A stretch of DNA of 64,000 nucleotides from Escherichia phage A73. A program made the position numbers and the translations under genes. The notes beneath the pieces are model-generated. The model worked only from the letters and a program-made list of their open reading frames with translations. It had not been told where the DNA came from and ran no database searches. Below, in pieces: positions 9,618 through 22,503 of the stretch. The DNA is taken from sequence record OP778609; one strand, given 5' to 3'. Numbering within the stretch: position 1 is the stretch's first letter; each line of letters begins with the position of its first letter.

Positions 9618-9623
9618 AAAGTA

Positions 9624-9652
9624 TTGACAGAAAGAAAGAAGTAAATTAAATT
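9624..9652 (+). promoter_or_regulatory. sigma70-type promoter TTGACA-17-TAAATT with leader hairpin
   Basis: followed by CACGTAA start motif and hairpin GCCGCAATCGTGCGGC (about 9665-9680). Confidence 0.55.
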
Positions 9653-9707
9653 ATACCACGTAACGCCGCAATCGTGCGGCAATAAAAACTGATAGGAATT
9701 GAACAAA

Positions 9708-9920
9708 ATGGCTAAAATCATCATTAAAAAATCCCGTGTATCTTCTGTTGCTCGCGTCGAAATGGTAAACACTATGCCAGGTTACCGGACTCGCGAGGAA
9801 GCCCGAAGCGTTGCAAAACAGATTAAAGCCCGTGGCTTAACTGTAAGTGCACCGACCAAAACACAAGAAGGATGGAAGGTATCTATTAAATCCGGTACAC
9901 TGTCAATCAATAAACACTAA
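9708..9920 (+). CDS. hypothetical basic protein (70 aa)
   Basis: ATG at 9708 preceded by AGGAA; track ORF begins at in-frame TTG 9699. Confidence 0.5.
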   Translation: MAKIIIKKSRVSSVARVEMVNTMPGYRTREEARSVAKQIKARGLTVSAPTKTQEGWKVSIKSGTLSINKH

Positions 9921-9936
9921 TAGCCAAAACATTAAC

Positions 9937-9952
9937 GGGGCAACTTTGCCCC
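9937..9952 (+). other. GC hairpin GGGGCA-loop-TGCCCC after stop (weak terminator)
   Basis: inverted repeat seen directly. Confidence 0.35.
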
Positions 9953-9983
9953 TCATTAAATAACATTATCCAGGAGTATTAAC

Positions 9984-10142
9984 ATGACTAGCCAAAACAC
10001 TAACATTGAAAAAATCAACATTACTAAAGAGCGTAAAGCATGGAATGAAACATTAAATCTCAAAGGTAAGAAGCTAAATAAAACTAAACGCGATCGCAGT
10101 ACAAAGCGGGCCTTTTGTGAATTTACAGCGGATCAAGAATGA
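9984..10142 (+). CDS. small basic protein (52 aa)
   Basis: ATG with CAGGAG RBS; ATGA coupling to next ORF; below track cut-off. Confidence 0.4.
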   Translation: MTSQNTNIEKINITKERKAWNETLNLKGKKLNKTKRDRSTKRAFCEFTADQE

Positions 10143-10438
10143 TGATTAAAGTTATTGCACTTACTACTTTATTGTGTATACCATTTTTGGCGCACGGTAC
10201 TAAGTTTTACGGTGCTAACTTGATAGATTGTAAAGCTCATATGCTGGACCATGAAACAGGCAACAAATTTGTTAAGCCTTTCCAGATCAATCCAGCGGCA
10301 TTTAGTGACGGTGTTTTGTATCAGGAAGGTAAAGCCAGTACGCTGATAATCCATTACGATCCAGCGACAAAGAAAGGTAGCTTATCAATCCAGATTGAAG
10401 GCGCGGAAGAGTTTTCAGGTAAAATAATCTGCAATTAA
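10139..10438 (+). CDS. putative secreted/periplasmic protein (99 aa)
   Basis: N-terminal signal-peptide-like segment MMIKVIALTTLLCIPFLAHG. Confidence 0.6.
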   Translation: MMIKVIALTTLLCIPFLAHGTKFYGANLIDCKAHMLDHETGNKFVKPFQINPAAFSDGVLYQEGKASTLIIHYDPATKKGSLSIQIEGAEEFSGKIICN

Positions 10439-10446
10439 TATGTTAA

Positions 10447-10476
10447 GGCCCGCCATTGTGCGGGCCTTTCTTTTAT
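10447..10476 (+). terminator. rho-independent terminator
   Basis: GGCCCGC-CATTGT-GCGGGCC stem followed by TTTCTTTT. Confidence 0.7.
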
Positions 10477-10498
10477 GAAAATAATTTTGAAAATGTTG

Positions 10499-10526
10499 TT
10501 GACAGCACCGATTAAAAGCGTATAAT
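10499..10526 (+). promoter_or_regulatory. sigma70 promoter TTGACA-16-TATAAT with no ORF downstream
   Basis: consensus hexamers; downstream hairpin CGGGGA..TCCCCG and RBS-like CCAGGAG but no start codon before the next promoter. Confidence 0.6.
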
Positions 10527-10616
10527 GTATTACATCAGGACGGGGAACCAAACAAGTAACTCCCCGTTAAGTAGTCCAGGAGTAAGACATACGAAAACCT
10601 CCCCTGATAAAATAGT

Positions 10617-10644
10617 TTGACAATAGTTTTTAGTACTGTATAAT
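10617..10644 (+). promoter_or_regulatory. sigma70 promoter TTGACA-16-TATAAT with leader hairpin
   Basis: followed by hairpin GGGGAGAATAGTTCTCCCC (about 10657-10675) then RBS AAAGGA. Confidence 0.65.
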
Positions 10645-10695
10645 ACATTACATCAAGGGGAGAATAGTTCTCCCCACATCAAAGGAATCAAAACA

Positions 10696-10923
10696 ATGGC
10701 TATCGTAATCACTCGCGTATCTGGTACAGTTGGCAATGCGGCAGTAGTAGCGGTTATCACTAACAAGAAAGGTGCGGAACTACATTTTGCAATGTATAAC
10801 TGGTCAGTTGATGAGTTTGGTCAGTACGCTAGTGTAGAATACATTGAAACCTATCAAGTGCCGTCGATTAGTTTAACTGATTTGGGCGTTGAGCGTATCC
10901 TTTGCCTGGATGAATTAAATTAA
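10696..10923 (+). CDS. hypothetical protein (75 aa)
   Basis: ATG with AAAGGAA RBS. Confidence 0.55.
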   Translation: MAIVITRVSGTVGNAAVVAVITNKKGAELHFAMYNWSVDEFGQYASVEYIETYQVPSISLTDLGVERILCLDELN

Positions 10924-10931
10924 AAAAGTAC

Positions 10932-10959
10932 TTGCAAAGTAAGTCGGATAAAGTATAAT
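10932..10959 (+). promoter_or_regulatory. sigma70 promoter TTGCAA-16-TATAAT with leader hairpin
   Basis: hairpin GGGGAGAAATGATTCTCCCC (about 10972-10991). Confidence 0.6.
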
Positions 10960-11008
10960 ACATTACATCAAGGGGAGAAATGATTCTCCCCACTAAAAGG
11001 AAACTAAA

Positions 11009-11152
11009 ATGAAAACTTGTCAGTGTGGTAAAAAGTCTATTACTGGTCTGCGTCGCGGTGTTGCTTTATGCCAGTATCATTACAATAGTCAAGTATGGGG
11101 TAAAACGTGGGCTGACCAGGTTGAAGCAGCAAATAAAGCAAAAAGTAATTGA
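11009..11152 (+). CDS. small Cys-rich protein (47 aa)
   Basis: ATG with AAGGAAA RBS; CQCG..CQYH motif; below track cut-off. Confidence 0.4.
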   Translation: MKTCQCGKKSITGLRRGVALCQYHYNSQVWGKTWADQVEAANKAKSN

Positions 11153-11176
11153 CAGTAAGAAGAAAAAGAGTAAACT
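11149..11176 (+). promoter_or_regulatory. sigma70 promoter TTGACA-16-TAAACT with leader hairpin
   Basis: followed by TACGTAG and hairpin GCGGCAATAGCGCCGC (about 11189-11204). Confidence 0.6.
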
Positions 11177-11227
11177 GTATTACGTAGAGCGGCAATAGCG
11201 CCGCCACATCAAAGAGAGAGAATCAAA

Positions 11228-11440
11228 ATGGCTAATATCCGCACTGCACTGAAAAATGCAAAACAAGTTTTATTCTCTGACGAGGAAGTATTTAATAAAG
11301 ATATTACAGGCGTTCGAAATCTTAAAGATATCTATGACATTTTCAGTATACGCATGAATATGAAACGTGTTGGAACGTTCGGGAATAAAGTACTGTATCA
11401 GAACGGTGATTATAATTTTACACTGACTATTATTAGTTGA
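11228..11440 (+). CDS. hypothetical protein (70 aa)
   Basis: ATG with AGAGAGAG RBS. Confidence 0.55.
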   Translation: MANIRTALKNAKQVLFSDEEVFNKDITGVRNLKDIYDIFSIRMNMKRVGTFGNKVLYQNGDYNFTLTIIS

Positions 11441-11459
11441 AAGTTTTAGTCTAGCGCTA

Positions 11460-11488
11460 TTGACTTAAACCGATAGTGCTGGCATAAT
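11460..11488 (+). promoter_or_regulatory. sigma70 promoter TTGACT-17-CATAAT
   Basis: hexamers; no leader hairpin. Confidence 0.55.
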
Positions 11489-11533
11489 AACTTTTATCAA
11501 GTAGTACAAATCAAACAAAGAGAGAATACAATC

Positions 11534-11773
11534 ATGGCTAATAACAAAACTTTCAACGGTCACAAAAACAAAACTCATTGGAATGTTTCCTTGTGGATTA
11601 ATAACGATGCATCACTGTATCGACTGGCTAATGATTTCATCGCCGCTAACACTAATCGTAACGATGCGGCCCGTCATATGATGTTATTTTTAGAACAAAC
11701 CGGACAACATAAAACACCGGACGGATTCAAGTATAGTACTACTGCAATCCGTGCCGCGATGGTTGGAATGTAA
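11534..11773 (+). CDS. hypothetical protein (79 aa)
   Basis: ATG with AGAGAGA RBS. Confidence 0.55.
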   Translation: MANNKTFNGHKNKTHWNVSLWINNDASLYRLANDFIAANTNRNDAARHMMLFLEQTGQHKTPDGFKYSTTAIRAAMVGM

Positions 11774-11787
11774 AAAGAAAAAAGTAG

Positions 11788-11816
11788 TTGACACAAACAA
11801 GCAAAACAAGTAAATT
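11788..11816 (+). promoter_or_regulatory. sigma70 promoter TTGACA-17-TAAATT with leader hairpin
   Basis: AAAAAGTAGTTGAC upstream block; CACATCA start; hairpin GCGGGGAATGGCCCCGC (about 11829-11845). Confidence 0.6.
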
Positions 11817-11866
11817 AATCACATCAGGCGGGGAATGGCCCCGCTAAAAGAGAAGAGAGAAATCAA

Positions 11867-12196
11867 ATGGGCTTTTTATCTATCGTACAGACTAACTTCG
11901 AAAATGATTTTATTGCTCAAGCTATCAACATTGACAAAGGTATCCCAAATATCAATTTTGGTTTCAATAGTGGTGGTTATGAGAGATACCAGTATTTTGT
12001 AACTGACGATGGAAGTGTTTTAGGTATCAATACGGTGATGGCTAATATCCAAAACATTAATTTCAATGATCCCGATGAGCGCTCATTCTATATCGTCGGT
12101 GTCCAGGTGAACTACAATGATGACTCTTTAATCGATGATTACACTGGCGAGACGTTAGAAAGTGCTTACAGTGATGAATCAGAAGAAGAAAACTAA
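11867..12196 (+). CDS. hypothetical acidic protein (109 aa)
   Basis: ATG with AGAGAGA RBS. Confidence 0.6.
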   Translation: MGFLSIVQTNFENDFIAQAINIDKGIPNINFGFNSGGYERYQYFVTDDGSVLGINTVMANIQNINFNDPDERSFYIVGVQVNYNDDSLIDDYTGETLESAYSDESEEEN

Positions 12197-12210
12197 TATT
12201 AAAAAAGTAG

Positions 12211-12239
12211 TTGACTGAAAGAGTATAAAGAAGTAAGAT
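12211..12239 (+). promoter_or_regulatory. sigma70 promoter TTGACT-17-TAAGAT with leader hairpin
   Basis: hairpin GGGGGAACATTTCCCCC (about 12253-12269). Confidence 0.55.
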
Positions 12240-12294
12240 AATTAACGAATAGGGGGAACATTTCCCCCGTAAACAAAAGAAAGAGAGATTAAAA

Positions 12295-12477
12295 ATGACA
12301 GAACTGATTGCAACTACAAAGATCGAAGGCGTTAACGATGTTACTTTGTCCTATGATCCTTCTACTCTGGTTTATGTTGTGAAATATGGCAGAATGATCG
12401 CAGAACTTGATTGCATTGATGAGGCTTTCGAAAAATATTTCGAACTTATCAATATTGCTTATGATGACTACCGTTAA
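12295..12477 (+). CDS. hypothetical protein (60 aa)
   Basis: ATG with AGAGAGA RBS. Confidence 0.5.
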   Translation: MTELIATTKIEGVNDVTLSYDPSTLVYVVKYGRMIAELDCIDEAFEKYFELINIAYDDYR

Positions 12478-12507
12478 TATACAACGCAAAAATAGGAAGG
12501 TGATAAA

Positions 12508-12717
12508 ATGATCAATGAAAAAACAATCAATGACGTTCGAGAGGAAGTTTTAGCCGTTGCCGTAGAATCTGGCGCACGTCAGGCATTTTGGAAAGCTACT
12601 GATCTTTACCCTGAGCAAGCCGAAAATATTCTCAATCAGGTCAGCGTTAAACTTGAACAAATGGGAAAACTGAAAACAAGTGAGCGCCTCGACCAAATCA
12701 TTAAAGAAAGTTTTTGA
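12508..12717 (+). CDS. hypothetical protein (69 aa)
   Basis: ATG with AGGAAGG RBS. Confidence 0.5.
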   Translation: MINEKTINDVREEVLAVAVESGARQAFWKATDLYPEQAENILNQVSVKLEQMGKLKTSERLDQIIKESF

Positions 12718-12781
12718 TTGACTTTTAACATTGCCCCTATTAGTATTCAGGGGCAAGATTAAAAGAAACAAGGACACAAAG

Positions 12782-13093
12782 ATGAACGATATTGTTAGCA
12801 TCATAGGTTTACTGGGCATAGGTTACATCGCCACATCAATTACAATGAGTTACTTCAATAAAAGGCGTGATAAAATGTTTTGTTACTTTGAGTATCGTTA
12901 CCGTGGTAAGGTTGGATCATCCCGTGACTATGGTCCGATGTTAGAGATTGATGCGGTTGGCGCTATGCAGTATCGCCAGTCACTAGGGGCTGAAATAATT
13001 TTTGAAGTGTACCGCAGTACAGAAGAAGAGATCCACGACATTATTGACGAGCGTCAATATTACCACGAACAACAAACTAAACGCAGGGCTTAA
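12782..13093 (+). CDS. membrane protein (103 aa, 1 predicted TM)
   Basis: internal ATG of track ORF 12731 preceded by AAGGACAC; hydrophobic IVSIIGLLGIGYIATSITM. Confidence 0.5.
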   Translation: MNDIVSIIGLLGIGYIATSITMSYFNKRRDKMFCYFEYRYRGKVGSSRDYGPMLEIDAVGAMQYRQSLGAEIIFEVYRSTEEEIHDIIDERQYYHEQQTKRRA

Positions 13094-13096
13094 CAT

Positions 13097-13237
13097 ATGA
13101 CTAATACAAACCGACAAAAAATCATCAAAACTAAAAAACTTGATTTCGATACTTATCAAGAATGTAAGAAGAAGAAAGTAAAAGATAAGCGAGAGAACAA
13201 GCGGCACGAATGGATCACTAATACAATCGATCTTTAA
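13097..13237 (+). CDS. small Lys-rich protein (46 aa)
   Basis: ATG 3 nt after upstream stop; below track cut-off. Confidence 0.35.
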   Translation: MTNTNRQKIIKTKKLDFDTYQECKKKKVKDKRENKRHEWITNTIDL

Positions 13238-13244
13238 CAATCAA

Positions 13245-13271
13245 GGCCCGCTATAATGTGGGCCTTTCTTT
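13245..13271 (+). terminator. rho-independent terminator
   Basis: GGCCCGC-TATAAT-GTGGGCC stem followed by TTTCTTT. Confidence 0.7.
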
Positions 13272-13284
13272 ATGGAGAACAGAC

Positions 13285-13512
13285 ATGATTAATATTCTTT
13301 CACTTACAGAAGTGATCCGCTTCCTCAAAAACAACGCCCTGGGAACGTCTATAACGTATCTAATCCCTCAAGGTAAGGATTATGCCAGTGTTACACGTTC
13401 AATCACTGCTACGGCCTCCAGAGAAGAAATAAAGGTCAGTGTAAGCCAATTGCTCATCGTTGATCCTTCCTCCTGTGAAACAATCCAGGCTGTAAAGATA
13501 ATTAGAAAATAA
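13285..13512 (+). CDS. hypothetical protein (75 aa)
   Basis: internal ATG of track ORF 13258 preceded by GGAGAA; avoids overlap with terminator stem. Confidence 0.45.
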   Translation: MINILSLTEVIRFLKNNALGTSITYLIPQGKDYASVTRSITATASREEIKVSVSQLLIVDPSSCETIQAVKIIRK

Positions 13513-13525
13513 TTTAAAAAACTTA

Positions 13526-13554
13526 TTGCATCCATTATCGAGAAGATGTACATT
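13526..13554 (+). promoter_or_regulatory. sigma70 promoter TTGCAT-17-TACATT
   Basis: hexamers preceded by A-tract. Confidence 0.45.
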
Positions 13555-13597
13555 AGTTTCATCAAGACGAGATGAAGATAACCCAAAGGTGATTGCT

Positions 13598-13891
13598 ATG
13601 TTATACGAAGTTTTTGCAGGTTTCTGTTTTTATGGTGCTGCCGCCGTTCGCCAGTGTGATGACTATGTAGTTGAGTCATTCGATGATCCTTTGGCGTGTG
13701 AGATTGTTACTACAGCTTATGAGCAAGATCGCCGTTGGATTAATCCAGCCTGTATCGCATCGCCTGAGGTTGAACCTATGCCGGAAGGTGAGGAATTAAC
13801 AGAGGAAGACTTGCAAGAAGTAAAAGAAGTTATGAGCTACATGATTGATAATCTGGACGCTGAAAACTTACAACGTGCATTGCAAAAATAA
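13598..13891 (+). CDS. hypothetical acidic protein (97 aa)
   Basis: internal ATG of track ORF 13526 preceded by AAAGGTG. Confidence 0.5.
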   Translation: MLYEVFAGFCFYGAAAVRQCDDYVVESFDDPLACEIVTTAYEQDRRWINPACIASPEVEPMPEGEELTEEDLQEVKEVMSYMIDNLDAENLQRALQK

Positions 13892-13905
13892 TTTTAAAAA
13901 AGTAG

Positions 13906-13934
13906 TTGACTCGAAGAAACAAAACAATTAAATT
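13906..13934 (+). promoter_or_regulatory. sigma70 promoter TTGACT-17-TAAATT with leader hairpin
   Basis: near-duplicate of promoter cassette at 11788; hairpin GCGGGGAATGGCCCCGC (about 13947-13963). Confidence 0.6.
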
Positions 13935-13978
13935 AATCACATGAGGCGGGGAATGGCCCCGCTGAACAAAAAGAGATT

Positions 13979-14359
13979 ATGAAAATGGCTAAAAATACTA
14001 ACGTTTGTGATTACGCTGATCTGGTTACTCTGAATGCAGATTCTAAAATCAACCTGTCAAACGTGGAAGCGGTGCACGTCCTGGCCCGCCGCTGGTTCCA
14101 AAAGTTATATGGTAATACTTATTTCTCTTTAAGTGTAGATGTGGAGATCGCTGGTAAATTGGTAGAAGTAGTTAACGTCCCGTTTAAATATGGTTATGGT
14201 GATCATTTCGATACCGTGGCACTGGAAGAATTTAGCAAGGTTATCAACATGGAAGGAAAAGAGTTTTCAGAGTATAGTTACCTTTCCCGTTTTTGCCGTG
14301 ACAATAACATCCCTGTTTATTCGAACGCTGTTGATGTTAAACGCAAAAAAGATATGTAA
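13979..14359 (+). CDS. hypothetical protein (126 aa)
   Basis: ATG downstream of promoter and hairpin. Confidence 0.6.
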   Translation: MKMAKNTNVCDYADLVTLNADSKINLSNVEAVHVLARRWFQKLYGNTYFSLSVDVEIAGKLVEVVNVPFKYGYGDHFDTVALEEFSKVINMEGKEFSEYSYLSRFCRDNNIPVYSNAVDVKRKKDM

Positions 14360-14365
14360 TTATTA

Positions 14366-14392
14366 TTGACAGTACATAGAAAACAAGTAAAC
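14366..14392 (+). promoter_or_regulatory. sigma70 promoter TTGACA-15-TAAACT with leader hairpin
   Basis: hairpin GCGGGAACACTTCCCGC (about 14408-14424). Confidence 0.5.
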
Positions 14393-14446
14393 TGTATTAC
14401 ATAGAAAGCGGGAACACTTCCCGCTTATATTCCAGGAGTAAGAGAA

Positions 14447-14698
14447 ATGATCGAACAAATCAAAACTACGACGGCTAATGTAACGGGTACAGTATCGCAC
14501 TTCATTAGTGATGAATCACGGGGCGTTCCTTATTGTGCAGTACATATAAACAAAAATGGCGACTACTGGTTAACGGCGTATGGATCTTATTCTTTCGGAC
14601 GTAGTGCACACCAAAAGATCCTAGATAAAGTACAGCCAACGGGTAAAAATATTACCGCTGAGATGTTTAATAAATCACTTGCAAAGTTAAAAGCGTAA
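14447..14698 (+). CDS. hypothetical protein (83 aa)
   Basis: ATG with CAGGAG RBS. Confidence 0.55.
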   Translation: MIEQIKTTTANVTGTVSHFISDESRGVPYCAVHINKNGDYWLTAYGSYSFGRSAHQKILDKVQPTGKNITAEMFNKSLAKLKA

Positions 14699-14706
14699 AG
14701 TATAAT
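14679..14706 (+). promoter_or_regulatory. sigma70 promoter TTGCAA-16-TATAAT with leader hairpin
   Basis: overlaps 3' end of ORF 14447; hairpin GGCGGGGAGTGTTTCCCCGCC (about 14718-14738). Confidence 0.55.
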
Positions 14707-14759
14707 ACATCACATCAGGCGGGGAGTGTTTCCCCGCCACAAAACGAAAGGCCAACAAA

Positions 14760-14930
14760 ATGAAAGCAAGCATGATGGTAGCGACTGTAAACATTATCAT
14801 TGGTAACGGAACTGGACACCACGAAATCATAAAAAACAAGGCTTACTCTATTAGCTCCCTCAAAAACGACATGCGTTTATCTTTGGGCCAAATCCGCGCT
14901 TACTTTCGTGAAGGCTATCAGAAAAAGTAG
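14760..14930 (+). CDS. small protein (56 aa)
   Basis: ATG with GAAAGG RBS downstream of promoter and hairpin; below track cut-off. Confidence 0.4.
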   Translation: MKASMMVATVNIIIGNGTGHHEIIKNKAYSISSLKNDMRLSLGQIRAYFREGYQKK

Positions 14931-14941
14931 CAAATTAATAG

Positions 14942-14970
14942 TTGACGCAAAGGTCATTTTAATTTAATCT
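14942..14970 (+). promoter_or_regulatory. sigma70 promoter TTGACG with weak -10
   Basis: consensus -35; -10 ambiguous (TAATCT or TTTAAT). Confidence 0.4.
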
Positions 14971-14998
14971 ATAACAAATCGACAAATGAGGCATAATC

Positions 14999-15301
14999 AT
15001 GTTTACCAAAGCAAATGAGTATTTCTTTTTAGATTTACTTGATGAAAGTATCTTTGTAGCTATGGGCAAAAAGTCAATGGTCTTTAAACGCAAAAAAGAT
15101 AATGGTGAATTTGAAGATAGCGAAGCCGTGCTAACAGTCAAGGAAGGTAAAGAACCTGCAACGTCTGTTTTAATCTACACCTTGACCAACGGCGGTGAAG
15201 TTATCGCATCAGGTAGTAGCCATCCGATCCCAAAATCGGAAGTGAACACTGTAATTATTGGTTTTGTTGCAGCTTGTTTCTACGAGGAAAAAAGCAAATG
15301 A
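14999..15301 (+). CDS. hypothetical protein (100 aa)
   Basis: ATG with GAGG RBS. Confidence 0.55.
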   Translation: MFTKANEYFFLDLLDESIFVAMGKKSMVFKRKKDNGEFEDSEAVLTVKEGKEPATSVLIYTLTNGGEVIASGSSHPIPKSEVNTVIIGFVAACFYEEKSK

Positions 15302-15462
15302 ATCCGCAAAATTTATCTTATGTAAACTGGCCCAATAAGGCTGAGAAGAAAGAAAACTTGAAACGTCTGGTTAACTTTTATCGTGAAGCTGGTCATAGTA
15401 AAGTAACAGCGGTTAAAATGGCAAAGCGCCACCTTAACAAGCCAAGTACTAAACTAATTTAA
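15298..15462 (+). CDS. hypothetical basic protein (54 aa)
   Basis: ATG overlapping upstream stop (ATGA). Confidence 0.45.
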   Translation: MNPQNLSYVNWPNKAEKKENLKRLVNFYREAGHSKVTAVKMAKRHLNKPSTKLI

Positions 15463-15470
15463 AAAACTTG

Positions 15471-15500
15471 TTGACGTTGGCTTGTGCCGTACCTATAATG
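15471..15500 (+). promoter_or_regulatory. sigma70 promoter TTGACG-18-TATAAT with inverted repeat spanning -10
   Basis: TGCCGTAC-CTATAATG-GACGGCA palindrome encloses the -10 hexamer. Confidence 0.55.
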
Positions 15501-15534
15501 GACGGCATAGGCAAACGAAATAGGATTTATAGAA

Positions 15535-15741
15535 ATGAAAAAGAAAATTGTATATAATATTATTAGCTTTATCGCAACTATCCTCCTGGCTATTGCTGGT
15601 CTATCTTTGATTGTTGCAGTAGGATCTCTGTTTCCTGGGGCAATAAGTATTAGCATAGCTTTCGCCGCATTGTCTGTTTTTACAGGGTATGCAGGGATTA
15701 AAGTTACTTACTGGTCAGAAGATTACAAATATTCAAACTAA
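15535..15741 (+). CDS. small membrane protein (68 aa, 2 TM)
   Basis: hydrophobic IISFIATILLAIAGLSLIVAV and ISIAFAALSVFTGYAGI. Confidence 0.55.
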   Translation: MKKKIVYNIISFIATILLAIAGLSLIVAVGSLFPGAISISIAFAALSVFTGYAGIKVTYWSEDYKYSN

Positions 15742-15754
15742 ATTGAGGTGTAAG

Positions 15755-16357: not shown

Positions 16358-16385
16358 TTTACAACAACGATAAAATCAGTACAAT
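16358..16385 (+). promoter_or_regulatory. sigma70 promoter TTTACA-16-TACAAT
   Basis: hexamers upstream of ORF 16427. Confidence 0.45.
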
Positions 16386-16426
16386 ACAAATCAGGCAATA
16401 AAGCCGACTAAAGAAAGGTAAAGACC

Positions 16427-16666
16427 ATGCAAACTATTATCACTAAATTTCTTCCTCCTACTAATACCCGTGGCGCTCGCATCAAAGCAAAATGTTGGTT
16501 GACAGATATCACTATCGCCTATCCGGTAGCCGAGATCAACGAAGCCCATAAACTGGCGGCAGAAGTGTTAATTACAAAATTGAAGATGACAACAGATATT
16601 GATTGGAATATCGTTGCAAGCGGTGAAACACCGGACGGCAGCGGCTACGCTTTCATTATCAAATAA
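16427..16666 (+). CDS. hypothetical protein (79 aa)
   Basis: ATG with GAAAGG RBS. Confidence 0.55.
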   Translation: MQTIITKFLPPTNTRGARIKAKCWLTDITIAYPVAEINEAHKLAAEVLITKLKMTTDIDWNIVASGETPDGSGYAFIIK

Positions 16667-16683
16667 TCATAAAGCGGCGGGAA

Positions 16684-16702
16684 TAGTTCCCGCCTTATTA
16701 AA
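16684..16702 (+). other. orphan leader-type hairpin GGCGGGAATAGTTCCCGCC without promoter
   Basis: same stem-loop class as promoter-proximal hairpins, located between stop of ORF 16427 and RBS of ORF 16721. Confidence 0.6.
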
Positions 16703-16720
16703 GAGAAAAGAGAAGATATC

Positions 16721-16999
16721 ATGACTATTACTAAATTATCCACCGAAGAGATCACCAACATTCTGACTACTAATCTTGAAGATTGGAAGCGTGAAGCTGA
16801 TTTGCAAGCAACCTGTAAGCTGAATACAGAGCTAACATCAGACGATATTGAAACGATCGTCCATGCTGATTTCTATGATGCTTTGCATGATGATTCTATC
16901 ATCCTTGAAACGATGCTAGATAATGCCTGGATTAATCCCGATTTGGCGGCGTATGGTCGTAGCACCTTTATCACTATCCACAATATTTATAACCGTTAA
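16721..16999 (+). CDS. hypothetical protein, paralog A (92 aa)
   Basis: about 50% identical to ORF 17671 (MTIxKLSTEEI..LTTNLExWKREAD..ITIHxIYN). Confidence 0.6.
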   Translation: MTITKLSTEEITNILTTNLEDWKREADLQATCKLNTELTSDDIETIVHADFYDALHDDSIILETMLDNAWINPDLAAYGRSTFITIHNIYNR

Positions 17000-17126
17000 G
17001 AGGCGATAAATGGTCCTGTAACAGCCTAAAACGGCGAAAGTATGCAATCACCTTACTTGACGATATTCTACGCACTGGCTTACACTGGGGCTTTTAAAAG
17101 GGCACAAAATAATTCGAAAAAAGTAG

Positions 17127-17154
17127 TTGACGGCAATTAATAATCTGGTAAAGT
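17127..17154 (+). promoter_or_regulatory. sigma70 promoter TTGACG-16-TAAAGT with leader hairpin
   Basis: CACGTAAG start; hairpin GGCGGCAATAGCGCCGCC (about 17167-17184). Confidence 0.6.
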
Positions 17155-17201
17155 GTACCACGTAAGGCGGCAATAGCGCCGCCATTAAAGAGATAAACGA
17201 A

Positions 17202-17588
17202 ATGAAACAAGAAATCATCAATGAAATTATTAGCGGTTACAAAGAAGCCTTTATTTTCGCTGAATCAGCAACAGATCAGCACGGGGAGTATATCGATAAC
17301 CTTGATCCTTATGACTTCTCCCAGGATGCAAACGACCGGATCGCCCAGGATGTGACAGCCTTTATCAATGCTAATGTTGCCGCTATCTCTGAAGCGATGA
17401 GCGACGGCGCTACAGCCAACCAGATCGGGAATGATTTACATTTTACCCGTAACGGTCACGGTGTAGGCTTTTGGGATCGCCCTGAAATATACACCACTAA
17501 CACGGCTAACCGTTTGAGCAATGCCGCTAAATTAATGCCTAACGTGTCAGCTTACATTGGGAAAGATAATCTGATTTATATTGAATAA
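17202..17588 (+). CDS. hypothetical protein (128 aa)
   Basis: ATG with AGAGA RBS. Confidence 0.6.
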   Translation: MKQEIINEIISGYKEAFIFAESATDQHGEYIDNLDPYDFSQDANDRIAQDVTAFINANVAAISEAMSDGATANQIGNDLHFTRNGHGVGFWDRPEIYTTNTANRLSNAAKLMPNVSAYIGKDNLIYIE

Positions 17589-17594
17589 AAAGTA

Positions 17595-17622
17595 TTGACA
17601 AGCTGAATCAACCTGATAAGAT
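17595..17622 (+). promoter_or_regulatory. sigma70 promoter TTGACA-16-TAAGAT with leader hairpin
   Basis: CACATAG start; hairpin GGGGCGACAAGCGCCCC (about 17633-17649). Confidence 0.55.
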
Positions 17623-17670
17623 GTATCACATAGGGGCGACAAGCGCCCCGCCTAACAGAGAGATAGAATC

Positions 17671-17949
17671 ATGACCATCGCCAAATTATCCACCGAAGAA
17701 ATCGAACAAGTGTTAACTACTAACCTGGAACAATGGAAACGTGAGGCAGATATACAATCAGCAAAATGGCTTAACGAGAAGTTAACACCGGATGATCTGA
17801 GTAAGATTATAGATCCTCAATTCTATGAAGATATTCACGACACGGCGTTATCCGTTGAGGATGTACTCGATAAGCATTACATTGCTACTGATTTGCAGGT
17901 TTACGGGCGTAAAAACTTTATTACTATTCACGACATTTACAATAACTAA
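17671..17949 (+). CDS. hypothetical protein, paralog B (92 aa)
   Basis: paralog of ORF 16721. Confidence 0.6.
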   Translation: MTIAKLSTEEIEQVLTTNLEQWKREADIQSAKWLNEKLTPDDLSKIIDPQFYEDIHDTALSVEDVLDKHYIATDLQVYGRKNFITIHDIYNN

Positions 17950-17984
17950 GGGCGGCAACGCCCTACAACTAAAAGGGTAATATT

Positions 17985-18179
17985 ATGACGTTAGCAACAT
18001 GCACCGGATCAAAAATTGCTTGCTTTGAGTTTATGGAAGACTATGAAACGACAGCTATCACCGATCAATATATCACCGTGATCACGCGTGACGGTATCGC
18101 CTGGCATGTTCCGGTTTATGATGGGGATACCTATGAAGTCACCGACAGCGGCGGCAATACAGCTATCTTTGTTGTCTAA
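17985..18179 (+). CDS. hypothetical protein (64 aa)
   Basis: ATG with AAAGGG RBS; preceded by hairpin GGGCGGCAACGCCC. Confidence 0.5.
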   Translation: MTLATCTGSKIACFEFMEDYETTAITDQYITVITRDGIAWHVPVYDGDTYEVTDSGGNTAIFVV

Positions 18180-18192
18180 GGGGGGAAACACT

Positions 18193-18420
18193 ATGCACAA
18201 TAACATCATTACCGATCGTGCCGCTACTATGCGCCCTGGCGATCGGGCACGTTTACAGATCGGCGCTTATCCGTTCCCTACCTATGACTTTTGCAAAGTA
18301 ACCGCTATCGAAAACAATCCCTTTGATCCTGATACCGTGATCATCTGGTACGAAGGAAAGGGAAATAAATTTGAAGACATTTTGGGGCGGGATGAGCATA
18401 TCAATATTATTCGTTACTAA
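18193..18420 (+). CDS. hypothetical protein (75 aa)
   Basis: internal ATG of track ORF 18088 preceded by GGGGGG. Confidence 0.5.
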   Translation: MHNNIITDRAATMRPGDRARLQIGAYPFPTYDFCKVTAIENNPFDPDTVIIWYEGKGNKFEDILGRDEHINIIRY

Positions 18421-18538
18421 TCGCCACCTAACAGCCTAAATAGTAGGAGGCAATGCAATCCCCTACTCAATGAGAATGGAGCGCCCTGGCTTATGCTGGG
18501 GCGTTCTACGTTACAGCAAAATAATTTTAAAAATACAC

Positions 18539-18567
18539 TTGACGTTCGCCAGGTGAGCGGGTATATT
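18539..18567 (+). promoter_or_regulatory. sigma70 promoter TTGACG-17-TATATT with leader hairpin
   Basis: CACGTAGG start; hairpin GCGGCAATAGTGCCGC (about 18580-18595). Confidence 0.6.
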
Positions 18568-18616
18568 TTATCACGTAGGGCGGCAATAGTGCCGCTCACT
18601 GACTGGAGCTATCATT

Positions 18617-19018
18617 ATGGCCTTTACAATCACCTCTTACACTGACGTTGCCAACATTGCTAAAACTTTCGGCCCTGAAGCCCTTAAGTATGCGGTATCC
18701 AATGGTAAACTAACGAAAGAGCAATGTTACCTGATTGGAAGCTGTAAACGTTGGGCGGCATCTCGTAACATCGAGATTGAAAACGTAAATGATGGTAACA
18801 TCGAGTATAGCGTTGATGCAGTATTCAAGGCCGTGTATTTGGGCGGTATCTACAATACCAATCTTAATGATGTTCGTATCGTTCGCACTGGTTTTGGGGC
18901 TTATGATGTTCCAGTCCGCGAAGCTATGGAAAAAGGTTATATTAATCCAGCTATTTTAAGTATGATCATGACTGAGGCCAAAGAACGTAACGAAGTACGG
19001 GCCATCCTGGGCCTGTAA
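18617..19018 (+). CDS. hypothetical protein (133 aa)
   Basis: ATG with GGAG RBS. Confidence 0.6.
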   Translation: MAFTITSYTDVANIAKTFGPEALKYAVSNGKLTKEQCYLIGSCKRWAASRNIEIENVNDGNIEYSVDAVFKAVYLGGIYNTNLNDVRIVRTGFGAYDVPVREAMEKGYINPAILSMIMTEAKERNEVRAILGL

Positions 19019-19039
19019 TGAAATATTAATCGAAAACTA

Positions 19040-19067
19040 TTGACACGGATCGTCAATATGCTAATAT
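19040..19067 (+). promoter_or_regulatory. sigma70 promoter TTGACA-16-TAATAT with leader hairpin
   Basis: CACGTAGG start; hairpin GCGGCAATATCGCCGC (about 19080-19095). Confidence 0.6.
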
Positions 19068-19122
19068 TTATCACGTAGGGCGGCAATATCGCCGCTCACC
19101 CCTTAAAAGAGCGAGATCTAAA

Positions 19123-19338
19123 ATGGCGTTAACAAAACAAGAAATCATCGACCGCATCAAAGAGTCAACTGGCGAGAATATTGGTAATGGTTTAATTGTT
19201 AAAGTTCTTGATTATTCAAATAATCCCCTGGCACCGGAACCAGTGGCTTACAAATTATCCTGGATATCCGTATTTAGTGGTAAGCGTACAAGATGCGTAT
19301 ACTATCCGAACACCGTGGGGCGTCAGTACTGTAAATAA
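19123..19338 (+). CDS. hypothetical protein (71 aa)
   Basis: ATG downstream of promoter and hairpin. Confidence 0.5.
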   Translation: MALTKQEIIDRIKESTGENIGNGLIVKVLDYSNNPLAPEPVAYKLSWISVFSGKRTRCVYYPNTVGRQYCK

Positions 19339-19398
19339 AGGGCACTTTAATATTAATAAGGGGCGGCAACGCCCCAGGTCAACCAAAGGGAAACAACA

Positions 19399-19605
19399 AT
19401 GAGTATTGCAATGATTAGCTCATCCGACATTAAAAAGGCTTTATCTGTATTGCGCTATCACCATAGAAGGAAGGTAATCAATGACGAGAGCTATCTAGAT
19501 TCATCGTTAGAAAGCGATACGTTGGAAGCCATTTCAAAATTATCTGATTTGCATAAACGCATGACCGAAAGCAACCGATCCGACTTCATAGGGGGCGAAA
19601 TATGA
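19399..19605 (+). CDS. hypothetical protein (68 aa)
   Basis: ATG with AAAGGG RBS; starts MSIAM like next ORF. Confidence 0.5.
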   Translation: MSIAMISSSDIKKALSVLRYHHRRKVINDESYLDSSLESDTLEAISKLSDLHKRMTESNRSDFIGGEI

Positions 19606-19862
19606 GTATTGCAATGTTAATCAATACCGTAGAAGAGGCGAAAGCATTAAAGTTACGTGTTGAACTGATTGATCAACCAGGTGGAGATCTCCTTGTACAA
19701 ATCTATCCCCCAAAGGATGATTCTGGCGCTTATGATTGGTGCTACTCTGACACGTTCGAACAAGTAGACATTAAAGCAATAACATCATTTATCAACAGGG
19801 CTATACTTGAGCAAACGATAGAACTTAACGGGATGTTAAAAACACCCTGGCACATTTACTGA
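19602..19862 (+). CDS. hypothetical protein (86 aa)
   Basis: ATGA overlap with upstream ORF. Confidence 0.5.
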   Translation: MSIAMLINTVEEAKALKLRVELIDQPGGDLLVQIYPPKDDSGAYDWCYSDTFEQVDIKAITSFINRAILEQTIELNGMLKTPWHIY

Positions 19863-19873
19863 GTTCGACAAAA

Positions 19874-19900
19874 GGGCTTGACTTGTTCAGCCCTTTTTTG
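19874..19900 (+). terminator. rho-independent terminator
   Basis: GGGCT..AGCCC stem followed by TTTTTT. Confidence 0.7.
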
Positions 19901-20026
19901 CTATTCTTATCAAACGGGCGGCACCTGGGAACAGGGGGAGGTAATCACTGGACGACTCCGCTATACAGTGATAGTAAATAGCTATCAATAATCTCCAAAA
20001 ATAAAATAAAACCTATCGAGTCTTTA

Positions 20027-20055
20027 CAATTCTTTCTGTTGACACAACAACCGCA
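20027..20055 (+). promoter_or_regulatory. sigma70 promoter TTGACA-17-TATTAT driving an ORF-free transcript
   Basis: no ORF longer than about 10 codons between 20062 and 20340. Confidence 0.5.
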
Positions 20056-20341
20056 TTACAGTATTATTTATCTCGTAGGGCAGCGAAGCAGTGATGTAAA
20101 GTAGTTACTCTATGATGTAAGTTCTGAGAAGTCGAATCCGATAAAGTATCAGAAAGTTTCTAAGTTTTCGAATCGTCCAGATGAAAAAGGCTGGCAAGTG
20201 TTGAGAAAGGGCACGTTGAGTAAGTCCTGAACAGGGGCGCTCCTAGACACCTTCTACTGAGATTGCGATCGAAGTGTTAAACTGTGAGAAACAAAAGAGC
20301 GCTAGGAAAGAAAGAAACAAGAAAAGAAGTTAAAAAGATTG

Positions 20342-20370
20342 TTGACACAAAAGTAAGTTGTATACTATTA
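20342..20370 (+). promoter_or_regulatory. sigma70 promoter TTGACA-17-TATTAT
   Basis: followed by CTCGTAGGGCA start and ORF 20416. Confidence 0.5.
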
Positions 20371-20415
20371 TATCTCTCGTAGGGCAAACATTCAAAACAT
20401 CAAAAAGGGTACAAA

Positions 20416-20691
20416 ATGTTACAACTTAACGCTAAATTAGACAAAGAAATCACTGAATTTTGGGATATGGTAGTAGCTACTGATGTGGACGGTGTAGCAA
20501 GTCCTTACCTCAATAACATCGAGTATCACAATGTTGCCGCTATCAATGCAGAACACAAAGAGAAAGGCGGTGCTGATAAATTTGCTAAAAGCAATGGCTT
20601 CACTGATGCTAATCACATGATGCAATCAGTATTGTGGCAAGCTCAAGAAGATTTCGAAGAAAAAACTCTTGAATTTGCCAGACGCTCATAA
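20416..20691 (+). CDS. hypothetical protein (91 aa)
   Basis: ATG with AAAGGG RBS. Confidence 0.55.
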   Translation: MLQLNAKLDKEITEFWDMVVATDVDGVASPYLNNIEYHNVAAINAEHKEKGGADKFAKSNGFTDANHMMQSVLWQAQEDFEEKTLEFARRS

Positions 20692-20746
20692 TAGAATAAT
20701 CAAACGGGCCGAAAGGCCCACTAACTGACCTAACAGGATTAACATC

Positions 20747-21016
20747 ATGAATCGCATCGACCAGCTTAAAGTAGTTCAGCATATGGCTTACCGTATCCTT
20801 GAAGTTCAGAAAGGGAGCAAAAAAGAAGTATGTGAGAAGGCTTATAAGGTATTCAGCCACAAAGCTGATGATTGGAAGTTGCAGAAAGTCAAAAAGGCCG
20901 ATATCCTGGGCTACCTTGAGGATGAGATCCGCCTTGCGGAGCAAAAACAGATTCGTCGTGATGAGGCAGAACATAACCAGGCCTGGCAGGAGTGGTTTAA
21001 AGGGTATACTAAGTAA
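20747..21016 (+). CDS. hypothetical protein (89 aa)
   Basis: ATG with AGGAT RBS; charged coiled-coil-like. Confidence 0.5.
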   Translation: MNRIDQLKVVQHMAYRILEVQKGSKKEVCEKAYKVFSHKADDWKLQKVKKADILGYLEDEIRLAEQKQIRRDEAEHNQAWQEWFKGYTK

Positions 21017-21025
21017 TATCGAAAA

Positions 21026-21055
21026 CGGGGGGTTATATGCCCCCTTTGTAAATAT
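21026..21055 (+). terminator. hairpin GGGGGG-loop-CCCCC plus T-rich run
   Basis: inverted repeat then TTTGTAAATATT. Confidence 0.45.
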
Positions 21056-21079
21056 TCCATTAATTTACAATTCCCTCTA

Positions 21080-21109
21080 TTGACAAGAAAGTCAATTTTG
21101 CAGTATAGT
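21080..21109 (+). promoter_or_regulatory. sigma70 promoter TTGACA-18-TATAGT
   Basis: hexamers upstream of ORF 21150. Confidence 0.5.
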
Positions 21110-21149
21110 TATATCTCTAGCAGCAAACAACAAAACAAAGGACAACGAC

Positions 21150-21569
21150 ATGAACATCAAATCAACTAATCCGGCTTACTCTTTCGATAACGCTTTTTGT
21201 CACGGTAGTGCCGCCAAAGGTTTTGAAATTGATGGTAAACTGGTTATCGTCAATGTTGATGGGGAAGAGGTTGCAGTTTATCCAGTGGCAGACGTTAAAA
21301 GCCGTTTACAATGCCGCATGGATGTTAACGAATACCGCCTTGATCCGGTTCGTGTCGTTGCCCTGGTACTGGAAGAAGAAATTAAAGCAATGCAGCACAG
21401 CAACAAATTTATCGGCGATGCACAGGACAACATGAAAGTAAGCCGCCACAAAGTTAATGAAGCACTGAAAGATTTTGGCTTTAAAGATCTAGTTATCAAA
21501 CGTGATGAAAAATTTCGCTTTCGTAATGATCTGGCAAATCGCTACTATGAAATCTATGAAGCACTTTAA
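21150..21569 (+). CDS. hypothetical protein (139 aa)
   Basis: ATG with AAAGGA RBS. Confidence 0.6.
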   Translation: MNIKSTNPAYSFDNAFCHGSAAKGFEIDGKLVIVNVDGEEVAVYPVADVKSRLQCRMDVNEYRLDPVRVVALVLEEEIKAMQHSNKFIGDAQDNMKVSRHKVNEALKDFGFKDLVIKRDEKFRFRNDLANRYYEIYEAL

Positions 21570-21585
21570 GAGGTAAGACAACAAG

Positions 21586-21608
21586 GGGCCGCAATAGCGG
21601 CCTTTTCT
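21586..21608 (+). terminator. rho-independent terminator (GGCCGC-AATA-GCGGCC + TTTTCT)
   Basis: same GCAATAG-loop hairpin class as leader hairpins, here with a U tract; T tract abuts next -35. Confidence 0.55.
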
Positions 21609-21609
21609 A

Positions 21610-21638
21610 TTGACACCTGCTAATCATTCCTTTAATAT
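21610..21638 (+). promoter_or_regulatory. sigma70 promoter TTGACA-17-TAATAT
   Basis: followed by CTTGTAGGGCA start. Confidence 0.55.
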
Positions 21639-21689
21639 GTACCTTGTAGGGCAAGCAATAACGCAAGCCCATAAATAGGACAAACTATC

Positions 21690-21887
21690 ATGACCATCGC
21701 TAATGAACTGATCGCTGTATTGAATGAAGCCAAATCTAATCAGATCGATGTACAGATCAAAGAATTGCCCAATGGCCTGATCGGTTGCACTTGCACCTGC
21801 TTCGGAAGTGACTACACAGAGGTAAGCTCTCTAGAATCTCTCATTCGTCACTTGAAATCAATAGTTGAAGATTGGAGAATCATCTAA
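21690..21887 (+). CDS. hypothetical protein (65 aa)
   Basis: ATG with AGGAC RBS; last gene of + block; followed by hairpin GGGGCCGCAATAGTGGCCC. Confidence 0.5.
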   Translation: MTIANELIAVLNEAKSNQIDVQIKELPNGLIGCTCTCFGSDYTEVSSLESLIRHLKSIVEDWRII

Positions 21888-22503
21888 TCAACCAGGGGCC
21901 GCAATAGTGGCCCTTGTCATATCCATCGGCGTGACTCTCCCAACTCTATTAATCCCTTCCCCATTTGGATCATCATAACTTACCTCATCTAATCATTAAT
22001 CTAATCCCCTTTGGAATCTCTCCCCCACAAATCTAAACTAATCTGATAGCTTACCATAACATAATCCACAAAGAAAGAACTATTTTGCCCACAATGAAAG
22101 GCAGTTTTAAAGAGATACCATTGCCAGAGTATGGAGGTGGCGCGACCGTAGGGAGCGACACTATAAAACGAGTATACCCCTCCTACCGCTATGCGGTCAT
22201 CGGTGATAACCGATATCGTTACACGCTATCTGTTCTCTTCGTTTCCTCGTTTTATAGTGTCTATATGTAGTAATCTTTTATTCTTTGTCAATACATTATC
22301 GAAGATAATATTGAATTATTTAATGCTTTGTTATTCATATAAAGTGAATAGCTAGTCAATAGGAAGGCCGTTAGTGTGACCACACAAAGAGGCTATGCAC
22401 CACAAAGAGAGGCCGTACTTGCCCACAAAAGGAGCAAACAAGCAAGGCGGTACGCCAGTTTGCTAATGAGCGTAGCTCTTTTGCTAGACAAAACTCTCTT
22501 CTC

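Follow-up and report, generated by a model that had tools for sequence, protein, structure and literature searches.

The early region of Escherichia phage A73 (sequence record OP778609), an rV5-like coliphage, carries a family of repeated cassettes in which a sigma70-like promoter is followed, at a nearly fixed distance, by a perfect GC-rich hairpin. This promoter–hairpin feature, found between 9.6 and 21.9 kb of the 64,000-nucleotide (nt) stretch that was analyzed (hereafter, the window), is real, statistically unambiguous, and conserved. Judged by their sequences, the cassettes are a variant, in other phage lineages, of the promoter-early stem-loop (PeSL) elements known from T4-like phages, with the hairpin at a fixed position in the predicted leader.

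Promoter–hairpin cassettes in the early region

When the 64 kb were scanned for perfect GC-rich hairpins (stem of at least 6 base pairs [bp], at least 5 of them GC pairs), 20 of the 36 hairpins fell within 9.6–21.9 kb. Promoters with up to three mismatches to TTGACA/TATAAT and a spacer of 16–18 nt were then paired with perfect hairpins of at least 5 bp. In the same region, 13 plus-strand sigma70-like promoters had a perfect 5–9-bp stem beginning 11–13 nt past the −10 hexamer (−35 boxes at 9624, 10617, 10932, 11149, 11788, 12211, 13906, 14366, 14679, 17127, 17595, 18539, and 19040), and the promoter at 10499 brings the number to 14, its hairpin having a stem of 7 bp and a loop of 14 nt. Against the 13 pairs observed, 0.013 ± 0.11 were expected from 300 dinucleotide-preserving shuffles, and 0.28 if the real hairpins were randomly placed. 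The minus strand of the window contained two such pairs, one of which is the divergent cassette at 8964. The strong copies were all confined to 9.6–21.9 kb, where they cluster among small genes.

A reading of the same DNA made earlier from the sequence only (the sequence-only reading) had proposed about 25 promoters and at least 15 hairpins with perfect GC-rich stems of 6–9 bp. The promoter estimate was fair, with 18 promoters scoring at least 10/12 and about six more scoring 9/12 with an upstream promoter (UP) element. For the hairpins, 14 copies are robust and about 16 are reached only once stems of 3–4 bp are counted; the perfect GC-rich stems were borne out, but their measured lower limit is 5 bp. 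The consensus put forward for the stem-loop, GCGGCAAUAGCGCCGC, did not hold for the whole set: it fits only five copies (9665, 11189, 17166, 18580, and 19080), which form one subfamily, and the stems outside it are GGGGAGAA, GCGGGG, GGGGGAA, AAGCGGGAA, GGCGGGGA, and GGGGCG. Across the window copies, the position, the G-rich 5′ arm, and the A-rich loop are conserved. Two promoterless copies that had also been pointed out do exist, although at 16676–16694 and 17949–17964, a few nucleotides from where they had been placed. The individual elements are given below, where J1–J5 denote breaks in colinearity with phage UPEC06.

9624–9680, plus strand: cassette 1, TTGACA-17-TAAATT; hairpin 9665–9680, GCCGCA-aucg-UGCGGC; gene start 9708
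10499–10616, plus strand: orphan cassette, consensus promoter; hairpin 10540–10567; AGGAG; junction J1; no start codon or open reading frame (ORF) ahead of the next promoter, 10617
10617–10675, plus strand: cassette, consensus promoter; hairpin 10657–10675, GGGGAGAA-uag-UUCUCCCC; gene 10696
10932–10991, plus strand: cassette, TTGCAA-16-TATAAT; hairpin 10972–10991, GGGGAGAA-auga-UUCUCCCC; gene 11009
11149–11204, plus strand: cassette, TTGACA-16-TAAACT; hairpin 11189–11204, GCGGC-aauagc-GCCGC; gene 11228
11788–11845, plus strand: cassette, TTGACA-17-TAAATT; hairpin 11828–11844, GCGGGG-aaugg-CCCCGC, with an outer G·U pair; gene 11867
12211–12268, plus strand: cassette, TTGACT-17-TAAGAT; hairpin 12252–12268, GGGGGAA-cau-UUCCCCC; gene 12295
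13906–13963, plus strand: cassette, TTGACT-17-TAAATT; hairpin 13946–13962, GCGGGG-aaugg-CCCCGC; gene 13979/13985
14366–14426, plus strand: cassette, TTGACA-16-TAAACT; hairpin 14406–14426, AAGCGGGAA-cac-UUCCCGCUU; gene 14447
14679–14738, plus strand: cassette, TTGCAA-16-TATAAT; hairpin 14718–14738, GGCGGGGA-guguu-UCCCCGCC; gene 14760
17127–17183, plus strand: cassette, TTGACG-16-TAAAGT; hairpin 17166–17183, GGCGGC-aauagc-GCCGCC; junction J2; gene 17202
17595–17649, plus strand: cassette, TTGACA-16-TAAGAT; hairpin 17633–17649, GGGGCG-acaag-CGCCCC; gene 17671
18539–18597, plus strand: cassette, TTGACG-17-TATATT; extra spacer hairpin 18543–18559; leader hairpin 18580–18595, lengthened to 18578–18597 by G·U and G-C pairs; junction J3; gene 18617
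19040–19097, plus strand: cassette, TTGACA-16-TAATAT; hairpin 19080–19095, GCGGC-aauauc-GCCGC; junction J4 in the loop; gene 19123
8911–8964, minus strand: divergent cassette, TTGCCA-17-TATAGT; hairpin GCGCC-aaccag-GGCGC, 8926–8911; A-rich leader; ATG near 8884
9937–9952, plus strand: promoterless intercistronic hairpin, GGGGCA-acuu-UGCCCC, 16 nt past a stop codon and 31 nt ahead of an ATG
16676–16694, plus strand: promoterless hairpin, GGCGGGAA-uag-UUCCCGCC; top match of the covariance model
17949–17964, plus strand: promoterless hairpin, AGGGCG-gcaa-CGCCCU, with a GNRA loop; overlaps a stop codon
19360–19375, plus strand: promoterless hairpin, GGGGCG-gcaa-CGCCCC; right junction of the J4 replacement
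20706–20719, plus strand: promoterless hairpin, GGGCC-gaaa-GGCCC; loop gaga in UPEC06 and aaaa in phage DrSchubert
21028: promoterless hairpin with a T-rich tail
21587–21602, plus strand: promoterless hairpin, GGCCGC-aaua-GCGGCC followed by UUUUCUAUU, terminator-like; left repeat of J5
21896–21913, plus strand: promoterless hairpin, GGGCCGC-aaua-GUGGCCC; right repeat of J5
10445–10468 (plus strand), 13243–13266, and 19874–19893: intrinsic terminators with a U tract (contrast class)

In terms of anatomy, the cassette is a direct repeat of 67–93 nt (families D1–D6, 60–84% identity), whose parts follow one another in the order A-rich UP element (AAAAAGTAGT), −35, −10, initial transcribed sequence (RTATYACRTAGG), hairpin, A-rich leader, Shine–Dalgarno sequence, and ATG. 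The promoter core predicted from the sequence, TTGACA-N16/17-TAnnnT preceded by AAAAAGTAGT, is of the near-consensus sigma70 type, and the gene downstream of each cassette is one small ORFan. Among 68 cassettes at six loci (the window and five loci from phage records), the distance from the end of the −10 hexamer to the stem was 12.8 ± 1.35 nt, with a mode of 13 (34 cassettes), and the distance from the end of the stem to the start codon was 21.9 ± 3.5 nt. The transcription start is likely to be the purine 6 or 8 nt after the −10 hexamer, because this fits the usual Y(−1)R(+1) preference of Escherichia coli. By this promoter geometry, the stem would begin near +5 to +7, and near +3 to +5 once flanking pairs are included, in agreement with the proposal that the hairpin lies just past the predicted start. 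The predicted 5′ tail is thus 5–7 nt, or 3–5 nt where a flanking GG...UC lengthens the stem through G·U and G-C pairs. The folded leaders were predicted to consist of a single-stranded tail of 4–6 nt and a hairpin of −10 to −18 kcal/mol, with the Shine–Dalgarno region and the AUG unpaired in most of them. We consider it quite probable that the hairpin is transcribed as part of the leader.

The leader hairpins resemble intrinsic terminators in being GC-rich, intergenic stem-loops, but they follow a promoter and lack a U tract, whereas genuine terminators occur in the same region. The 9 nt past the stem contained a mean of 1.6 T (0–3) in the leader hairpins versus 6.0 (5–7) in the three terminators at 10445, 13243, and 19874, so that the earlier statement that they are not terminators stands and the reading of the leader copies as intrinsic terminators was rejected. 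Only the promoterless copies at 21587 and 21028 had T-rich tails. An antisense terminator on the minus strand was also considered and set aside, as the flanks upstream of the hairpins are merely moderately A-rich.

Conservation, recombination junctions, and relation to PeSLs

The 9.6–21.9-kb region was matched by UPEC06 (Vequintavirinae), with 94% identity across 92% of its length, and shorter segments of it were matched at approximately 80–87% by Justusliebigvirus, Phapecoctavirus, and the jumbo phage 121Q. A search with a single protein found no related loci, and an alignment-based search found 3 close and 20 distant ones. Between 6 and 13 cassettes per locus were present in UPEC06, DrSchubert (Vequintavirus), alia (Justusliebigvirus), vB_Ec-G1 (Phapecoctavirus), 121Q (Asteriusvirus), and three IMG/VR contigs, nearly all on the early-gene strand. 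Overall, 99 copies and 46 distinct hairpins were counted. The conservation on which the sequence-only reading had staked its proposal was thus found: in five related phage groups, the hairpins are kept in position and shape, with differing stem sequences. For example, the typical stems are GGGGAGAA-uag-UUCUCCCC in 121Q, GGCGGGAAA-ugg-UUUCCCGCC in alia, and GCGGCA-augg-UGCCGC in vB_Ec-G1, and orthologous genes carry differing stems at the same position. One ortholog in 121Q has no hairpin, and another retains the hairpin without the promoter. The minus-strand hairpin of the 8911–8964 cassette was conserved in four relatives (alia, vB_Ec-G1, and two IMG/VR contigs). Meanwhile, the 20 more distant, metagenomic loci, which contain a homolog of one early gene, had no cassettes even though some had 40–55 promoter-like sites, indicating that the pairing of promoter and hairpin is not an artefact of the scan.

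The purine-rich arm came first in 97 of the 99 hairpins, compared with a ratio of about 50:50 among hairpins in control loci. The apical motif AAU(A/G)G or AAUGA was found in 71 of 99 hairpins; with the window, UPEC06, and DrSchubert set apart, the count was 57 of 67, and an AAURG loop was present in 7 of 13 window hairpins and in none of the six in DrSchubert. Stem changes between the window and UPEC06 included exchanges of G-C with G·U and of A-U with G·U. Because loop lengths differ, an alignment of all hairpins with MAFFT was not structure-consistent, and pair counts were therefore taken from a subset of 16 triloop sequences, in which double-sided changes occurred at five of the eight stem pairs. 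The covariance-model search that had been recommended was made with these 16 hairpins and succeeded in part: copies between 10.6 and 16.7 kb were recovered at E < 0.1, with higher scores on the plus strand, but the other window copies were not, and the model, being so short, contributes little that the custom scan did not.

Pairwise alignment of the window with UPEC06, its closest relative, showed that the breaks in colinearity lay inside hairpins in all five cases. At J1 (10545/10638), the break falls between two cassettes and leaves a promoter–hairpin without an ORF in the window. UPEC06 has approximately 480 nt with genes at the site of this orphan cassette (10499–10616), which looks like a deletion scar. 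At J2 (17166–17183), the window hairpin is a chimera of the two UPEC06 hairpins that flank three extra genes, and at J3 (18575–18602), UPEC06 has a single additional gene bordered by a 28-nt hairpin repeat. At J4 (19087/19346), homology stops in the loop and returns just ahead of the hairpin at 19360, with an unrelated gene between, and at J5, the hairpins at 21587 and 21896 flank a promoter (21610) and a gene (21690–21887) that are absent from UPEC06. The sequences leave little doubt that the cassette is a PeSL-like cassette and a recombination site. At the DNA level, the 20–90 nt of common cassette sequence would serve as a substrate for homologous exchange, and exchange between cassettes would insert, delete, or swap promoter–gene modules.

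PeSLs have been described in the T4-like phages RB49/phi1, PST/T4, and nt-1/KVP40 (Arbiol et al. 2010, PMC2839356; Comeau et al. 2014, PMC4122927), in which a sigma70-like promoter and a G(n)-loop-C(n) stem-loop flank ORFans and crossovers have been mapped even to the loop (PMC2839356, PMC4122927). The window cassettes share with them a sigma70-like early promoter with an AT-rich upstream region, a stable GC-rich stem-loop of the G(n)-loop-C(n) type (5–9 bp and −10 to −18 kcal/mol in the window), a 3′ end that supplies the Shine–Dalgarno sequence and start codon for a small ORFan, the clustering of many copies in a plastic small-gene region, and the occurrence of indel or replacement junctions between close relatives within the element, loop crossovers included. 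When we scanned the hyperplastic region of phi1 (110000–135000), three parts of its cassettes proved similar to those of the window, with AAAAAGTTGTTGACA as the UP element, ACACATC as the initial transcribed sequence, and GGAGAATCAAAATG as the ribosome-binding site.

However, the phages examined here are not T4-like but belong to Vequintavirinae-like, Stephanstirmvirinae, and Asteriusvirus lineages, and their stem-loop occupies one fixed place, 11–13 nt past the −10 hexamer, in a predicted transcribed leader. In most phi1 copies, in contrast, it is embedded in the promoter, either within the spacer or across the −10 hexamer, upstream of its own start, and in PST and nt-1 it lies upstream of the promoter. 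Only one copy in phi1 had the window geometry (12306 of the reverse complement of 110000–135000; stem 10–11 nt past the −10 hexamer). The phi1 stem-loops, read on the reverse complement, run directly into the −10 hexamer TATAAT, which forms a U-rich tail in read-through RNA and thus fits an attenuator role there; this tail may explain the attenuator activity reported for phi1 PeSLs. The leader hairpins of the window have neither a TATAAT tail nor the anatomy of a terminator, and since the tail is missing, the published role is not directly transferable to them. A stem-loop that lies upstream of its own start and attenuates, as in PeSLs, is not what the sequence of the leader copies presents, considering their position and lack of a U tract. 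Only the promoters at 15471 and 18539 in the window are phi1-like, whereas in the other cassettes the hairpin lies past the predicted start. At the first (15471–15510), the −10 hexamer TATAAT lies in the loop of TGCCGU...ACGGCA, and at the second (18539–18567), a spacer hairpin is followed by a T-rich −10 hexamer, in addition to the leader hairpin. In the literature searched, there was no prior account of leader hairpins in rV5, phAPEC8, 121Q, or RaK2/GAP32/CBB; the genome papers of rV5 and CBB describe promoters but not hairpins.

Possible functions of the leader hairpin

The overall reading that we favor, at about even odds, is of a PeSL-type cassette whose hairpin would shield the ends of early mRNAs from nucleases and double as a recombination site. 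RNA end protection as the function of the hairpin, taken by itself, is suggested tentatively by the sequences, at somewhat below even chance. Host RNA polymerase would start 3–7 nt upstream of the stem, and each early mRNA would open with a short tail and a hairpin of −10 to −18 kcal/mol, leaving the ribosome-binding site open. In read-through transcripts, the leader hairpins, as well as the promoterless ones past stop codons, would sit between cistrons. The hairpin would then act as a nuclease-resistant boundary, which at a 5′ end would limit 5′-end-dependent attack (RppH, RNase E) and, after an endonucleolytic cut in the A-rich leader, would give the upstream message a 3′ end protected from 3′ exonucleases. 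A role in the leader, and not only at upstream 3′ ends, is suggested because the first promoters of divergent units carry hairpins: the cassette at 8964 on the minus strand and, facing it on the plus strand, the promoter at 8999, with only a weak 4-bp hairpin (GGCG-aca-UGCC). Neither has a co-directional gene upstream.

Stem-loops at the 5′ terminus stabilize the ompA and T7 gene 10 mRNAs; the hairpins concerned (hp1 in ompA) lie 0 to approximately 4 nt from a mapped 5′ end, and their effects on half-life have been measured. Like ompA hp1 and the T7 gene 10 leader (GGGAGACCACAACGGUUUCCC), the window cassettes combine a GC-rich hairpin near the 5′ end, with the G-rich arm first and an A-rich loop, with an unstructured leader and a strong ribosome-binding site downstream, although the start in the window is predicted only and the tail is 3–7 nt. 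The T4 protein Srd stimulates RNase E. An Srd homolog was noted in rV5 (PMC3606486). By analogy, it may be speculated that Srd activity provides a motive for shielding phage mRNAs.

Several points weigh against end protection. No mapping of transcription starts in these genera was found in the literature searched, and the predicted unpaired tail of 3–7 nt is at or beyond the approximately 2–4 nt tolerated by classical 5′ stabilizers. RNase E readily bypasses simple or orthogonal stem-loops while scanning (PMC9943677), a finding that also weakened a scanning-barrier mechanism against RNase E that we had considered. Approximately 8 of the 24 or so promoters in the region (about a third) have no hairpin, and one ortholog in 121Q has lost it, so the hairpin is not essential. 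The pairing of 94.5% in the triloop subset, compared with 42–62% when the partners were slid, is circular, as the sequences were picked for being hairpins, and for this reason the diversity of pair types is the only informative part of that count. Most of the G·U pairs in the helices derive from one inherited motif. Furthermore, the fixed spacing, the G-first polarity, and the AAURG loops could have been inherited from a single ancestral cassette rather than selected.

This last point leads to an account in which the palindrome has no RNA function and is a passenger of a repeated DNA cassette, persisting through recombination, with its position, polarity, and loop inherited. The location of all five rearrangement junctions in hairpins, the 60–84% identity of the cassettes as direct repeats, the occurrence of promoters that are predicted to be functional and have no hairpin, and the differing position of the stem-loop relative to the promoter among PeSL families are all in line with it. 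However, perfect pairing is kept by 46 distinct hairpins despite their diverged stems, the leaders of orthologous genes differ in stem sequence while the hairpin stays in position, G·U pairs are more frequent than A·C pairs within the helices (16 versus 4), the strand polarity is strict (97/99), and hairpins are retained even where the promoter is absent; we therefore regard a pure passenger as unlikely. The attenuator or terminator role known from PeSLs, in which the hairpin would stop or slow polymerases from upstream promoters and each gene would be dominated by its own promoter, gains from a reported experiment in which a phi1/RB49 stem-loop, inserted upstream of lacZ and behind a strong promoter, cut expression about as much as rrnB T1 (PMC2839356). 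The intergenic position of the hairpins, the T-rich tails at the promoterless 21587 and 21028, and the phi1-like spacer hairpin with its T-rich −10 hexamer at promoter 18539 are in line with it. Nevertheless, the leader hairpins have few T residues behind the stem, termination downstream of a cassette's own predicted start would equally hit its own transcript, the phi1 logic of a TATAAT-derived tail upstream of the start is lost in the window, and the phage ends its units with canonical U-tract terminators (10445, 13243, and 19874), all of which make such a role rather unlikely.

The hairpin might instead be a loop-specific site for an RNA-binding protein, serving nut/boxB-like antitermination or acting as a handle for the timed repression or cleavage of early transcripts. 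The apical motif is kept in most hairpins while the stems differ, the many small early ORFans are candidate binding proteins, and the placement just past early promoters resembles that of lambda nutL; as in the nut boxB elements of lambda and P22, a short GC-stem hairpin with a purine- or A-rich loop would appear in the RNA shortly past early promoters. The loop C-GACAA-G at 17633 also resembles the P22 boxB loop. Against this, the loop sequence varies from copy to copy in the window (uag, auga, cau, cac, guguu, acaag, and aucg), and the copies, unlike the two of nut, number more than 14; the motif is missing from all six DrSchubert hairpins; and its place within the hairpin shifts, from partly in the stem to the loop, suggesting shared ancestry. 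No match to the boxA sequences CGCTCTTA or GCTCTTTA with up to one mismatch was found beside any hairpin, on which account the nut/boxA reading was rejected. An Rfam scan of 8–24 kb returned no relevant family (the lone match with E < 1 was Trp_leader, E = 0.085, on the terminator at 10445), and no candidate protein was identified, although no search aimed at an N-like protein was made. A protein site accordingly seems rather improbable to us. A broader version, which we rate as distinctly improbable, is that the leader hairpins are a dedicated RNA signal common to rV5-like, phAPEC8-like, and 121Q-like coliphages, by which one factor recognizes all early transcripts. A phage or host factor would read the AAURG or A-rich loop together with the conserved 5′ flank ACRUAGG, and would protect early transcripts while an Srd-like factor speeds RNase E decay of host mRNA or, alternatively, would cleave or antiterminate them at the early-to-middle switch. 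If true, this would be a regulon-wide 5′ tag, undescribed for any phage. Finally, a nascent hairpin could aid transcription at very strong promoters by preventing backtracking or R-loops and speeding promoter clearance. The tighter spacing to the promoter than to the start codon (standard deviations of 1.35 and 3.5 nt), the purine-rich arm placed first within the initial transcribed region, and the near-consensus promoters with UP elements are consistent with this, but promoterless copies could not act in this way, the phi1 stem-loops are equally G-first though they lie in the promoter spacer, and we know of no precedent at sigma70 promoters, so that we consider it very unlikely.

Genomic setting and significance

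Up to about 22 kb, approximately 40 very small genes lie on the plus strand of the window, and minus-strand genes begin at about 24 kb. Nearby genes encode an ATPase, an HNH endonuclease, RCC1-like proteins, ribonucleotide reductases, and thymidylate synthase. When ten early proteins were compared with PHROG families, nine found a match and one had none; no convincing function emerged, and the only family with a name, DNA ligase, was hit weakly and in second place. A scan of the window for tRNAs found none. The genes for RCC1-like ("regulator of chromosome condensation") repeat proteins lie in tandem on the minus strand (26228–29726), and a similar array is annotated beside the early region of jumbo phage 121Q. 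Two paralogous genes for proteins of 92 amino acids (16721–16999 and 17671–17949), with approximately 53–55% amino-acid identity and a 102-nt DNA repeat (D7), are preceded by a promoterless hairpin and by a full cassette, respectively.

The plus- and minus-strand units converge in approximately 2 kb without a convincing ORF (21900–24000), which probably corresponds to the "non-coding" box on the rV5 genome map. It contains a 58-nt direct repeat (22501–22558 and 22604–22661, 98% identical) and three copies of ATTGCCAGAGTATGG (22120, 22538, and 22641). A further 553 nt at 19863–20415 are ORF-free, with the terminator at 19874–19893 followed by consensus promoters at 20039 and 20342, the former of which might direct a noncoding RNA of approximately 250 nt. 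Neither promoter has a leader hairpin, and the initial transcribed sequence of both is of a second type (..CTCGTAGGGCA), which recurs at 19057 and 21628. Several records labeled "Campylobacter phage" (MG0656xx, approximately 146 kb) are no less close to the coliphage early regions than Justusliebigvirus genomes are, and their host labels look doubtful.

These results extend the PeSL idea, that is, mobile promoter-plus-hairpin cassettes carrying small host-takeover genes, to three more groups of large coliphages, jumbo phages included. With the hairpin inside the predicted transcript, attenuation as published does not suffice on its own as an explanation. As compact (approximately 110 nt), strong, and modular expression units, the cassettes may be of use in synthetic biology, and they mark sites of ORFan gain and loss in therapy phages. 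The sequences suggest that unrelated phages trade early-gene modules via a common sequence "connector".

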